Source: an uncultured Rhizobium sp.
GTDB lineage: Bacteria; Pseudomonadota; Alphaproteobacteria; Rickettsiales; UBA1997
Direction of reading: 5' to 3'
DNA length: 64,000 nt
Assembly (NCBI GenBank): GCA_964447395.1
Contig: CAYUSO010000005.1
Span: 30,376 to 94,375 of the forward strand
Both the position numbers and the translations under genes were made by a program. Each line of letters opens with the position of its first letter. Positions within the stretch are counted from its first letter, which is position 1. Shown here one piece after another: positions 34,546-58,893 of the stretch. A model generated the notes under the pieces. It did no database searches and was not told the DNA's origin. It worked only from the letters and a program-made list of their open reading frames with translations.

Positions 34546-35328
34546 CTAAACAACCTTCCGCACTTCCGAAACCAAATTCAAAAACACATCTGTTTCATAA
34601 TTATCATGCTTGCCTTGCAGCACTGAGGCGATGCGCTCTAAGCCCATTCCGGTGTCGATGCATGGTTTTGGAAGTGGGTTCATTTTTCCGTCTTTTTGCT
34701 TTTCGAATTGCATGAAAACCAAATTCCAAATTTCGATGAAGCGGTCGCCATCTTGATCTTTTGAGCCCGGAACTCCGCCGAAAATTTTATCGCCGTGATC
34801 GTAAAAAATTTCCGAGCAAGGACCACAAGGGCCAACATCGCCCATTGACCAGAAGTTGTCGTCGGTTGCGATGCGAATTATTTTTTCGTCATTTAATCCG
34901 GCGATTTTTTTCCAAAAATTTGCTGCTTCATCATCATTGTGATAGACTGTTACGAGCAGCTTTTCGCGGTTAATTCCAAATTCCTCGGTAAGCAAATTCC
35001 ACGCATAAAAAATTGCTTCTTCCTTAAAATAATCGCCGAAAGAAAAATTCCCAAGCATCTCGAAAAAAGTGTGATGGCGCGCAGTGAATCCGACATTGTC
35101 GAGGTCATTATGTTTTCCGCCGGCGCGCACGCATTTTTGCGAGGTGGCAGCGCGTTTGAATTTTGGAATTTCCACGCCGGTAAAGTAATTTTTAAACTGA
35201 TTCATTCCCGCATTTGTAAACATCAAAGTTGGATCGTTATGCGGAATTAGTGGGCTCGACGGCAAAATCTCATGTCCGTTTTTAGCGAAATAATCGAGAA
35301 ATTTTTGACGGATTTGGTTGGTAAGCAT
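34546..35328 (-). CDS. alaS: Alanyl-tRNA synthetase, N-terminal fragment (catalytic core, residues about 1-260)
   Basis: [65 protein letters not shown] and [14 protein letters not shown]. The ORF stops at ...VSEVRKVV*. Confidence 0.9.
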
Positions 35329-35331
35329 AAA

Positions 35332-35400
35332 AGTCGTAAGTTGTAAGTCGTAGGTCGTAAGTCGTAATCAAACTTGCGGTCTGACCTACGACTTACGACC
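35332..35400. repeat. Family D palindrome (asymmetric arms)
   Basis: agtcgtaagttgtaagtcgtaggtcgtaagtcgtaa...acctacgacttacgacc, lying exactly between the rnpB 3' end and the alaS N-fragment ATG. Confidence 0.85.
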
Positions 35401-35401
35401 A

Positions 35402-55622: not shown

Positions 55623-56956
55623 CCAATTTTTTGCGCGATTTCTTCGGCAATTTTTTTGATCTCATCGTAATCTTTTCCTTCAACCATCACGCGAATTAAA
55701 TTTTCTGTTCCTGATTTTCTAACCAGCACACGGCCCGCATTGCCAAGCTCTCGCGACTTTTCCTCAATAAAATTTTGCAGCGATTTTTCTTCGAGAGGAT
55801 TTTTTTTGCCGTCGAATTTTACGTTGCGCAGAATCTGCGGGAAAGATTCGTAAAGATTTAAAACTTCGCTCGTTGGTTTTTTTGCATCGCAAATAACTGA
55901 TAAAACTTGCAGTGCTGCAACTAGTCCATCTCCTGTTGTAGAGTAGTCGGAAAGCACAATATGTCCGGATTGTTCGCCGCCAAAATTGCATCCCAATTTT
56001 TTCATTTCTTCGAGAACGTAGCGATCACCAACTTGTGTGCGAATCGTTGAAACGCCGATATAACTCAAATAATTTTCCAGCGCTAAATTGGACATTTGCG
56101 TGATGACCACGGTGTCTTTTTTCAACTCGCCGCGATTGTGAAGTTTTTCCGCGATCAGCGCTATAACTTTGTCTCCAGCGACTGCGTGGCCTTGCTCATT
56201 CACAACTAAAAGTCGATCAGCATCGCCATCGAGCGCAATTCCGATGTCAGCTTTTTCTTCCAAAACTTTTTTGCAGATAGTTTCAGGAAAAGTTGAGCCG
56301 CATTTTTCGTTGATGTTGAAGCCGTTTGGTTCAGTGCCGATTTCGATTACTTCAGCGCCGAGTTCTTTGAAAATCGTTGGCGCCATTGAGTAGGAAGCGC
56401 CGTTAGCGCAATCGACGACGATCTTCAAACCAGTTAAAGTTTTATCTTTTGGGAAAGAATTTTTGACGAATTCGATATAACGGCCGCGCGCATCTTCGAG
56501 TCTTTTTACGCGTCCGAGATTATCCGCTTGAGCTAGAAATGGCGTGATGTCTCCCTCGATCAAGGCTTCAATTTCTGCTTCCAATTTGTCGGAAAGTTTA
56601 TGGCCGTCGCGGTTGAAAATTTTAATTCCGTTATCGTGGTAAGGATTGTGCGAGGCGGAAATCATGATGCCAATATCGGCGCGCAAAGATTTCGTGAGCA
56701 TTGAAACCGCCGGAGTTGGAACAGGTCCAACCAAAAATACATCCATACCAACAGCGGCAAAACCAGCGGTGAGGGCGGGTTCGATAACATAGCCGGAGAG
56801 ACGCGTATCTTTGCCGATGACGACGCGATGACGATGATCTCCATCAGTAAATTTTGCGCCAACTGCCATACCAACCCGCAGAGCAATTTCTGCAGTCATT
56901 GGAAATTTATTAGCCGTGCCGCGAATGCCGTCAGTGCCGAAATATTTTTTGGTCAT
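55619..56956 (-). CDS. glmM: Phosphoglucosamine mutase
   Basis: YFGTDGIRG, ISASHNPYHDNGIK, DGDADR and GGEQSGH. Confidence 0.93.
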   Translation of the reverse strand: MTKKYFGTDGIRGTANKFPMTAEIALRVGMAVGAKFTDGDHRHRVVIGKDTRLSGYVIEPALTAGFAAVGMDVFLVGPVPTPAVSMLTKSLRADIGIMISASHNPYHDNGIKIFNRDGHKLSDKLEAEIEALIEGDITPFLAQADNLGRVKRLEDARGRYIEFVKNSFPKDKTLTGLKIVVDCANGASYSMAPTIFKELGAEVIEIGTEPNGFNINEKCGSTFPETICKKVLEEKADIGIALDGDADRLLVVNEQGHAVAGDKVIALIAEKLHNRGELKKDTVVITQMSNLALENYLSYIGVSTIRTQVGDRYVLEEMKKLGCNFGGEQSGHIVLSDYSTTGDGLVAALQVLSVICDAKKPTSEVLNLYESFPQILRNVKFDGKKNPLEEKSLQNFIEEKSRELGNAGRVLVRKSGTENLIRVMVEGKDYDEIKKIAEEIAQKIG

Positions 56957-56960
56957 AAGG

Positions 56961-57200
56961 GAATTATGAGTGAAGAATTGTGAATTAAGAATTGTGAATT
57001 TTGAGGTTGTGACGGGGTCGCAACTCAGCCCTCCAATGGTAATATCCTATGATTCACAAAGACAGATTCCGAAACAAGTTCGGAATGACATGCTTAAACG
57101 AGATATTGCCCACATCGTCATCCCGAACTTGTTTCGGAATCTGTCTTTTGTGTTTGAAGGGATAATCGCCCATCCAATTCATAATTCTTAATTCTTAATT
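56961..57200. repeat. Family E palindrome whose arms (56961-57002 and 57176-57200) enclose a family A element
   Basis: Left arm gaattatgagtgaagaattgtgaattaagaattgtgaatttt and right arm aattcataattcttaattcttaatt, with the A element (57055-57152) nested between them. Confidence 0.7.
57055..57152. repeat. Family A inverted pair
   Basis: cacaaagacagattccgaaacaagttcggaatgac ... gtcatcccgaacttgtttcggaatctgtcttttgtg. The right arm overlaps the 3' end of the alaS C-fragment. Confidence 0.85.
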
Positions 57201-58893
57201 TTAACTCTTTAATCGCTTGCGGAATCGCATCTCTACTAACTCCACCACCCATTGCGAAATCTTTTTTTCCGCCGCCGCTGCCAATTGCAGCGCTAAGCAA
57301 TTTTGTTGAATCAAATTTTTCAAGCAGATCTGAGGTGATTGCAACGCAAGCCGAAACTTTATCATCTTTGCACGCGAAGATTGCAAAAATATGAGACGAA
57401 GAAAATTCGGCACGAGTTTTGATTTCATTGACAATGTCGCGAATGTCTTTTGCTTCAGCATCTTCAAAAACATGGGCGAGAAGGCTTGCGGCACCAAGAT
57501 TTTCTGATTTAAGACCATCTAAATTTTTAAGGAGCATTTGTTTTTTGAGTTGCTCAAGTTCTTTGTTTTTTTGTTTTTGTGCCGCGGCTTCTTGTTCGGC
57601 TGCGAGTTTTTTATTTTCATTTTTTTGCCATTCATCAACTGCGTTGCAGCCAGTGATCGCTTCGACTCTTCTGATTCCAGCCGCGACACTTTTTTCAGAA
57701 ATAATTTTAAAAATTTCAATTTCGGCGGTGTTTTTAACGTGAGTTCCGCCGCATAATTCAACAGAATTTCCCATTTTTACGACACGAACTTCAGCGTCAT
57801 ATTTTTCACCAAAAAGTGCTTCAGCGCCACTTTCGCGAGCCGCGTCTAAAGCCATTAAATTCGTGTTTACAGCGGAAGATTTTTTGATGTTTTCATTGAC
57901 TAAATTTTCAACTTTTTTGATTTCTTCCGCAGTCATCGCGCGATTGAAATTGAAATCAAAAGTGAAGCATTTGGCATCGACATTCGAGCCTTTTTGTGAG
58001 ATGGAATTTCCCAAAATTTCTTTGAGAGCTTTGTGCATTAAGTGAGTCGCGGAATGGTTAGCAGCGCGCATCGCGCGGGTTTTTGGATTTACTATTGCCT
58101 CAACTTCGTCACCGGTTTTTAGATTGCATTTTTGATTAGAAAAAAAATGTACAAACAAACCGCCAGCAAATTTTTTTGTTTCGGAAATTTCAACATCGCC
58201 AATTTTTCCATCATCGCCGCGCTGACCGCCAGAAGTGGCGTAGAATGGGGTTTGGTTGAGGATTATTCCATTTTCCAAAATCGCCAAAACCTTCGCTTTC
58301 GCACTTAAATTTTCGTATCCCAAAAATTTTGTTTCGCCGAATTTTTCCTTCAAATCGAAAAATATTTTTTCTTCTGCAACCTCTCCCGAGCCTTTCCAAT
58401 TGGCCTTGGCGCGCTCGCGCTGTGATTCCATTTCGCGATTAAATTCTTCCAGATCAACCTCGAAATTTTTTTCTTTGAGGATGTCTTGCGTGAGATCAAG
58501 TGGGAAGCCGTAGGTGTCGTAAAGCTTGAAGGCGAGGGCGCCGGAGAATTTGTTATTTTTTGTTTTGGCGATTTCCTCTTCCAAAATCTTCAAACCTTTC
58601 TCCAAAGTTTCGCGGAATTTTTCTTCTTCGGTTTTTAGTGTTTCGATGATAGTGGCGCGCGCCCTTGATAGTTCTGGGTAGGCAGCTCCCATTTCTTTGA
58701 TTAAAGCATCAACAAGTTTATACATCGAAGCCTCGCGAGCCCCGAGTTTGTGGAGTTGACGCATGCCACGGCGCATAATTCTGCGCAAAACATAACCGCG
58801 TCCTTCATTGCTTGGAAGTGCGCCGTCAGCGATTAGAAAGCATGAAGATCGCAGGTGATCGGCGATGATTTTTAGTTCAGGTTGAATCGACAT
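57118..58893 (-). CDS. alaS: Alanyl-tRNA synthetase, C-terminal fragment (rest of the aminoacylation/tRNA-recognition region, editing domain and C-Ala domain)
   Basis: Starts [42 protein letters not shown]. Editing motifs [12 protein letters not shown] and ELCGGTHV, and C-Ala [12 protein letters not shown]. The last roughly 25 codons are repeat-derived. Confidence 0.9.
   Translation of the reverse strand: [591 protein letters not shown]

Follow-up and report, generated by a model that had tools for sequence, protein, structure and literature searches.

The 64,000-nucleotide stretch of contig CAYUSO010000005.1 analysed here (the window) encodes the domains of alanyl-tRNA synthetase (AlaRS) on two open reading frames (ORFs) of 260 and 591 aa that lie 21.8 kb apart, and not on one chain of ~870 aa. 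We consider it probable that these ORFs specify a non-covalently assembled, two-subunit AlaRS, derived from an alaS gene that was split once, long ago, in this lineage. An earlier sequence-only reading of this DNA had described two intact, complementary AlaRS ORFs in permuted order, and this description is borne out by Pfam, by TIGR00344 and by alignment with the E. coli enzyme. The two genes, referred to here as the N-piece and the C-piece, are as follows.

34546-35328, minus strand: alaS-N (alaN, the N-piece), 260 aa, ATG start and TAG stop; class II motifs 1-3 and the first helix past motif 3
57118-58893, minus strand: alaS-C (alaC, the C-piece), 591 aa; recognition of tRNA, plus editing and C-Ala

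Against the Pfam model tRNA-synt_2c (PF01411) the N-piece spans positions 1-257 of 552 (E 4e-124) and the C-piece positions 268-550, with the C-piece also matching tRNA_SAD (PF07973, E 1e-18) and DHHA1 (PF02272, E 3e-7); only AlaRS families are found among the Pfam matches of both. TIGR00344, the NCBIfam model for bacterial alaS, is likewise shared out between them, positions 1-246 being covered by the N-piece and 268-847 of 847 by the C-piece, and the scores on this model exceed those on the archaeal TIGR03683 for the N-piece (405 vs 84 bits) and the C-piece (500 vs 296 bits). The N-piece aligns with residues 4-269 of E. coli AlaRS (PDB 3HXU, E 6e-117) with motifs 2 and 3 intact, residue 6 of the C-piece corresponds to E. 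coli residue 279, and the C-piece keeps the editing motifs (HxxxH, and CxxxH in the form CGGTH) together with the C-Ala motif. When full-length Midichloria AlaRS was used as the query, just two matches were returned in the window, covering query residues 1-253 and 271-853. The two pieces are complementary, giving a complete AlaRS with no gap, no overlap and nothing duplicated. In AlaRS, G3:U70 is read by an Asn and an Asp, which are N303 and D400 in E. coli and N359 and D450 in A. fulgidus (PMC10036535). N29 of the C-piece (in PSN) aligns with A. fulgidus N359 and D126 (in LYDTYG) with D450, and the alignment therefore locates both G3:U70-reading residues on the C-piece and none on the N-piece. 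The arrangement is also a trap for annotation, because the N-piece at 405 bits falls below the TIGR00344 cut-off of 457 bits and some N-piece copies have been deposited as 'hypothetical protein'.

The break lies in the loop between the first and second helices past class II motif 3, where the ~9 residues of E. coli loop 270-278 are replaced by the last residue of the N-piece and the first five of the C-piece (MSIQP). The junction alignment shows that this loop varies in length and sequence among full-length enzymes, in agreement with the earlier placement of the break past motif 3 in a variable region. One might ask whether the two products are joined after synthesis, by split-intein trans-splicing, by RNA trans-splicing or through programmed DNA rearrangement. 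Other bacteria do have split inteins and rearranged genes, and excision of the interval from C-piece to N-piece as a circle would put the N-piece directly upstream of the C-piece. However, the N-piece ends and the C-piece starts within a few residues of the homologous loop, which leaves no room for intein halves, and the Pfam scan of the pieces revealed no Hint or intein domain, so that the sequence-only reading was right to see no intein here. The Rfam scan of the window found rnpB and one tRNA only, with no intron RNA, the ends have no direct repeat of at least 10 nt in common, and throughout the clade a stop codon closes the N-piece and a separate start codon opens the C-piece. Joining is therefore very unlikely.

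Distribution of the split among relatives

Our searches listed the best 120 matches for each piece, with at least 120 protein clusters of each type occurring in metagenomes. Among these matches the N-pieces are all 253-307 aa long and 77-89% identical to that of the window, the C-pieces are all 564-675 aa long and 60-73% identical, and full-length AlaRS is absent from both sets (0/120 in each). The position of the break is also kept. N-piece relatives terminate at the end of the helix D-x-F-x-x-L-I-x-x-I, and those bearing GMGLER (119/120) end 32-50 aa past the start of this anchor, mostly 33-38, while the C-piece starts 5-10 aa ahead of IIADHLRS in 110 of its 120 matches, with seven others having longer called N-termini and three being truncated. 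Remoter C-pieces, 44-59% identical and from genomes with a GC content of 0.28-0.32, were obtained from 50%-identity representatives and from a search seeded with a divergent member; these have the identical start point, and some of the proteins are named 'Rickettsiales bacterium'. A neighbour-joining tree built on the C-region groups the split C-pieces together, apart from every sampled full-length alphaproteobacterial AlaRS, although the tree was made without bootstrapping and so is indicative only. Pairwise Nei-Gojobori ratios of nonsynonymous to synonymous substitution rates (dN/dS) lie at 0.055-0.113 where the N-piece is concerned and at 0.123 in the case of the C-piece; dS is saturated. 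Purifying selection acts on both pieces, and the check on selection proposed by the sequence-only reading thus gives 0.055-0.123 overall. Judged from these sequences, the split is an ancient trait of the whole clade and not an oddity of one genome.

Gene order was compared across loci L001, L083-L088, L091 and the P0130 locus, of which L083 and L088 lie on one 884-kb contig of a relative, Ga0369852_1084501 (884,295 bp, GC 0.31). In the window the two pieces share a strand, with the C-piece as the upstream one; in the relative's contig the C-piece (856,577-858,427) and the N-piece (881,863-882,651, 79% identical to that of the window) are both on the plus strand and 23.4 kb apart. The C-piece side of this contig is collinear with the window over glmM, nhaA, lptB, lptA, a DUF192 gene, hisD, bamD and a class III aminotransferase gene. 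On the N-piece side collinearity extends over M48 peptidase, DAHP-synthase-family, response-regulator and iron-containing alcohol dehydrogenase (Fe-ADH) genes and continues through gcvT, gcvH, pth, nadA, trpS and rnpB. At least some members of the clade inherited the permuted order from a common ancestor. The split status and synteny of relatives, which the sequence-only reading had put forward as a check, therefore come out as the same break in at least 120 relatives and as collinear genes in the 884-kb contig.

These comparisons also bear on whether the two ORFs could reflect faulty assembly, a frameshift in the gene call or the decay of a pseudogene confined to one genome. Data of the metagenome-assembled genome (MAG) type can be chimeric, and the protein collection searched has no entry for the exact N-piece protein. 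Set against this, ORFs of these two types, with matching ends, are found in hundreds of independent assemblies, each piece retains its own neighbour genes in relatives, and dN/dS is ~0.1. In addition, the coaX-rnj-alaC junction, including that between rnj and alaC, is identical in two Logan assemblies from unrelated sequencing runs (SRR32910815 and SRR11567520). We give an artefact of this kind scarcely any credence.

A scan of genome contigs for the N-piece returned 80 loci, of which 79 are ordinary full-length alaS and L001 alone is split; the high proportion of full-length genes follows from the patterns used, which were conserved motifs. Three further C-piece-like proteins, P0257, P0299 and P0308, are placed by the tree outside the split clade, though they start near the same loop. 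P0257 (907 aa) clusters with Midichloria-like sequences and has ~300 additional C-terminal residues, and P0299 and P0308 lie outside the alphaproteobacterial sequences; these may be independent splits or gene-call artefacts.

As regards the organism, neighbour proteins in the window are 80-88% identical to those of the MAG GCA_001768015.1, and the GC content of both is ~0.40. This MAG is listed as 'Candidatus Gamibacteraceae' by Castelli et al. (PMC10847448). Its C-piece cluster is named 'Alphaproteobacteria bacterium RIFCSPLOWO2_01_FULL_40_26', a name that appears under accession GCA_001767955.1 in the supplement of PMC9352585 and that Schön et al. placed in Gamibacteraceae, sister to Deianiraea, in the order Rickettsiales (PMC9352585). 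The best explanation is that the window derives from a member of 'Candidatus Gamibacteraceae', an uncultivated Rickettsiales family, or from a close ally. Neither alaS nor alanyl-tRNA synthetase is mentioned in the main text of PMC10847448 or of PMC9352585.

Proposed assembly of the enzyme from two chains

In the scheme that we propose, a single alaS would have been split once in this lineage, in a surface loop at E. coli ~270-278. The N-piece carries the whole alanine-activation site, and the C-piece acceptor-stem recognition with both G3:U70 readers, the editing domain and C-Ala, such that one chain would catalyse and the other would recognise tRNA and proofread. The two proteins would be made separately, the N-piece from behind rnpB and the C-piece from inside a housekeeping string ending in glmM, and the chains would then associate non-covalently via the native interdomain interface, with the terminal helix of the N-piece docking into the C-piece helical domain. 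The first helix past motif 3, which in one-chain AlaRS leads directly into the helical tRNA-recognition domain, remains part of the N-piece. As no interaction module or intein has been added to the termini, only the native interface would be available for association. We infer that the chains bind each other, that the enzyme is active and that the genome has no other alaS gene.

We ran AlphaFold2 on the artificially joined N- and C-piece sequences with an 85-sequence alignment that included full-length homologues, having set aside an earlier single-sequence model of the fusion (mean predicted local distance difference test score, pLDDT, 40.6). The resulting model has a mean pLDDT of 84.3 and forms a helix at 247-260, a loop at 261-265 and a further helix at 266-282, with the first of these ending exactly at the final residue of the N-piece. 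It superposes across the junction on the E. coli AlaRS aminoacylation fragment with a template-modelling (TM) score of 0.91 and a root mean square deviation of 2.8 Å, at ~59% identity in the fold-search alignment. The model shows that the pieces are compatible with a normal AlaRS fold, and speaks to that compatibility and not to mutual binding. A need for both chains is suggested by work on the E. coli enzyme, in which 442N is the smallest active fragment and 368N cannot alanylate tRNA (PMC11392972). Being shorter than 368N and without a G3:U70 reader, the N-piece almost certainly needs the C-piece.

Some observations nevertheless weigh against a two-subunit enzyme. The copy number of alaS was examined in the 64-kb window, and a second, transferred full-length alaS may be present elsewhere. 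There is no added dimerisation element or interaction module at either terminus, and the structural model, as an artificial fusion whose alignment includes full-length homologues, addresses compatibility only. Furthermore, N-pieces were seen only in closer members of the clade (at least 77% identity), the deep AT-rich branches having given C-pieces only.

If the pieces do not work together, then a full-length AlaRS, acquired horizontally, would be encoded elsewhere, or the N-piece alone would charge tRNA. The C-piece would in that case be an AlaX-like trans-editing or tRNA-binding factor, and the N-piece might adenylate alanine for some other purpose. The weak, G3:U70-independent charging by N. 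equitans AlaRS-alpha alone (PMC11392972) favours such a possibility. [quoted passage not shown] The pieces are also exactly complementary and co-occur wherever the contig is long enough (the window and the 884-kb contig), full-length AlaRS is found in 0/120 of the closest relatives of either piece, and the catalytic and recognition residues are conserved as strongly as in ordinary AlaRS. We consider a lack of cooperation improbable, and favour the assembly of both chains into one enzyme.

A bolder extension of two-chain assembly is that the lineage runs on a truly heteromeric AlaRS, with a catalytic subunit that lacks a tRNA-recognition domain of its own, convergent with the alpha/beta layout of glycyl-tRNA synthetase (GlyRS). 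This seems to us rather doubtful. Were it true, the subunits would stand in different regulatory contexts (rnpB or a tRNA for one and a housekeeping string for the other), such that their ratio could be tuned, and free C-piece could serve as a trans-editing factor for mischarged tRNA-Ala.

Gene neighbourhoods, repeats and the origin of the split

The following features surround the two genes in the window.

32869-34446, plus strand: lysS (class I LysRS), convergent with alaS-N; also a neighbour in L001
34484-34538, no strand: perfect palindrome, 25-bp stem and 5-nt loop, in the 99-nt spacer of convergent lysS and alaS-N; lineage-specific
35353-35400, minus strand: hairpin between rnpB and the alaS-N ATG; -30.6 kcal/mol, z -5.2
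35403-35864, minus strand: rnpB (class A RNase P RNA), on the alaS-N strand and 74 nt upstream of that gene; adjacency kept in L001 and L083
35925-36911, plus strand: trpS-like class I synthetase gene (PF00579), divergent from rnpB-alaS-N; kept in L001 and L083
35925-56956, no strand: housekeeping block between the pieces, ~21 kb; collinear with L083 and L088 in its two outer parts
55619-56956, minus strand: glmM, directly downstream of alaS-C; the pair is kept in every closer relative examined, including L088
57055-57155, no strand: palindromic element resembling a miniature inverted-repeat transposable element (MITE), core ATCCCGAAACAAGTTCGGGATGAC; supplies approximately the last 13 codons and the stop of alaS-C
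58897-60642, minus strand: rnj (RNase J); only AAA stands between its stop and the in-frame alaS-C ATG
60648-62714, minus strand: coaX and an aminotransferase gene (aat), upstream of rnj

A stable-RNA gene precedes the N-piece, on its strand, in all cases examined. This is rnpB in the window, L001 (7294-7696) and L083 (9453-9892), with gaps of 22-108 nt, and a tRNA-Ile(GAU) gene ending 21 nt ahead of alaN in L084 (9903-9979) and L085. A promoter consensus scan near the N-piece gave no promoter-like site, and terminator-like sites there were no commoner than chance. The arrangement suggests that the N-piece is transcribed by read-through from the stable-RNA promoter, and the hairpin at 35353-35400 may be the rnpB 3' end or a processing structure. 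Shine-Dalgarno sequences are nearly absent upstream of 17 genes between 32.8 and 62.7 kb, where leaders are A/T-rich and often have AAAA before the ATG; given that genes here are generally without one, its absence before either piece carries no meaning.

On the other side, the block aat-coaX-rnj-alaC-glmM recurs in L086, L087, L091 and the P0130 locus. The sequence-only reading correctly noted that the C-piece ATG lies 3 nt past the rnj stop (TAA-AAA-ATG), but the embedding of the C-piece in a coaX-rnj operon that it took from this is true of the window only: in relatives the rnj-to-alaC spacing is 100-340 nt, or other genes stand upstream of alaC, namely nusA-infB in the 884-kb contig and acpS in the deep AT-rich branch. 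The rnj stop and the alaS-C start are in frame (TAA AAA ATG, 58891-58899), and read-through of this one stop would fuse RNase J to the C-piece. In relatives the alaS-C string is broken by small accessory genes of 23S-rRNA-IVP/bAvd-like, GIY-YIG, RhuM and DUF3800 types, the last with a DUF3800-IX RNA (L086 7663-8097 and 12024-12332; L088 13232-14035 and 20472-21170). A lone virB3 stands beside aspS, just upstream of aat-coaX-rnj-alaC, in L086 (5259-5555), L091 (5445-5741) and the P0130 locus; Rickettsiales typically carry scattered type IV secretion genes, with which a lone virB3 fits. Elsewhere in the window the glycine-cleavage P protein is encoded by two adjacent genes on the minus strand (8891-10372 and 10380-11657), with PF02347 in both and GcvP2_C in the second, and gcvT and gcvH lie at 41646-43178, 30 kb from them. 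The two-subunit P protein is a common and ordinary form.

The palindrome at 34484-34538 lies, as had been noted, 7 nt from the N-piece stop, and is the sole perfect long hairpin in the window, with related half-sites at 1085-1105 and 1747-1767. As a T-run is missing after it on both strands, it looks like a repetitive extragenic palindromic (REP) element and not a canonical terminator. Its interpretation as the mark of the breakpoint is not supported, since the break is common to at least 120 relatives, and L001 and L083 have no palindrome there. We rejected the palindrome as a cause of the break on these grounds, the corresponding site being ordinary sequence in L001 and the stop overlapping the next gene in L083. 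The MITE-like core ATCCCGAAACAAGTTCGGGATGAC has six matches in the window against none expected by chance, others being at 2449-2472, 5287-5380 and 22454-22477, and the L086 C-piece ends ~20 residues sooner than that of the window. The element in the alaS-C end recalls the Rickettsia palindromic elements that insert into coding sequences.

How the halves came apart was approached through the flanks and through outgroups. The model of excision as a circle was rejected, there being no direct repeats of at least 10 nt common to the two ends, and searches for remnants of the missing halves beside each piece gave noise-level matches only. None of rnj, glmM, lysS, trpS and coaX was found within 10 kb of alaS in the 79 full-length loci, bar one match in L077 (Holophagales), a distant glmM-like sequence with 27% identity that we regard as chance, and rnpB was near alaS in none of seven Rickettsiales-like outgroup loci. 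The outgroup loci share no neighbours with either piece, and one of the two pieces, or neither, may sit at the original alaS locus. That the arrangement must be due to a translocation, as the sequence-only reading concluded, is not established, as no outgroup synteny or gene remnants show the route. Speculatively, the flanks (rnpB before the N-piece and glmM after the C-piece) would fit an ancestral rnpB-alaS-glmM locus with its halves swapped, and tandem duplication followed by reciprocal loss could, equally speculatively, produce such swapped halves.

Comparison with known systems

A 2023 paper describes AlaRS as the only synthetase with one prototype structure throughout biology, Nanoarchaeum being the lone split exception (PMC10036535). 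Our full-text searches of the open-access literature turned up split AlaRS for Nanoarchaeota only and no bacterial case. What is new here is that the split is bacterial and of independent origin, has a different break that cleanly divides catalysis from the recognition of tRNA, and has become fixed in a clade of family rank. This second, independent split would show that the border between catalytic core and tRNA-recognition domain can serve as an interface between separate chains. It offers a natural test system for communication between the active site and G3:U70 recognition, and for tRNA recognition in trans, and split alaS provides a clean genomic marker for this Rickettsiales clade.

The closest parallel is with the Nanoarchaeota, in which AlaRS-alpha and AlaRS-beta, like the pieces described here, are encoded by two distant genes without an intein and place the catalytic core on one chain and editing and C-Ala on the other. 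In N. equitans both chains are required for efficient, G3:U70-specific charging (PMC11392972, PMC10036535). The differences are nonetheless considerable. In E. coli numbering the nanoarchaeal enzyme is cut at residue 368, within the tRNA-recognition domain (PMC11392972), whereas the break described here falls at 270-278, and the sequence-only reading was therefore justified in treating this as a bacterial case with a break point unlike that of Nanoarchaeum. The nanoarchaeal Asn reader is on alpha and the Asp reader on beta, whereas here both are on the C-piece, and the nanoarchaeal enzyme is archaeal-type whereas this one is bacterial-type. Relative to Nanoarchaeota, then, the present split is of independent origin, bacterial and clade-wide, with a conserved permuted order.

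Compared with the canonical one-chain bacterial AlaRS (TIGR00344), all four domains and the diagnostic motifs are present here too, but are distributed over two polypeptides. Tupanvirus mini-AlaRS and free-standing AlaX show AlaRS domains functioning as separate proteins (PMC10036535). In those cases domains have been lost or duplicated, whereas here an essential enzyme has been cut between its catalytic core and its tRNA-recognition domain.

The other instructive comparison is with bacterial GlyRS (glyQ/glyS, alpha2-beta2), in which catalysis belongs to a class II subunit of ~300 aa and tRNA binding to a second subunit of ~690 aa, a division of labour similar to that of the 260- and 591-aa pieces. 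A likeness of GlyRS to AlaRS, in sequence and in the features of the active site, has been described; the GlyRS alpha subunit and part of beta are related to AlaRS, and part of beta superposes on the Mid1 tRNA-recognition subdomain of AlaRS (PMC8464048). In a fold search with the fused model, GlyRS-alpha was among the next matches after AlaRS, AlaX and ThrRS, with a TM score of ~0.5. Most GlyRS beta domains are, however, unrelated to the editing domain and the C-Ala domain of AlaRS, and glyQ normally sits next to glyS, with alpha before beta, whereas the two pieces here are 21.8 kb apart with C before N. The sequences described here are plain AlaRS, and the resemblance is one of architecture and not of family membership; the split may, in this sense, provide a natural system for asking how a two-subunit enzyme such as GlyRS could arise from an AlaRS-like ancestor.

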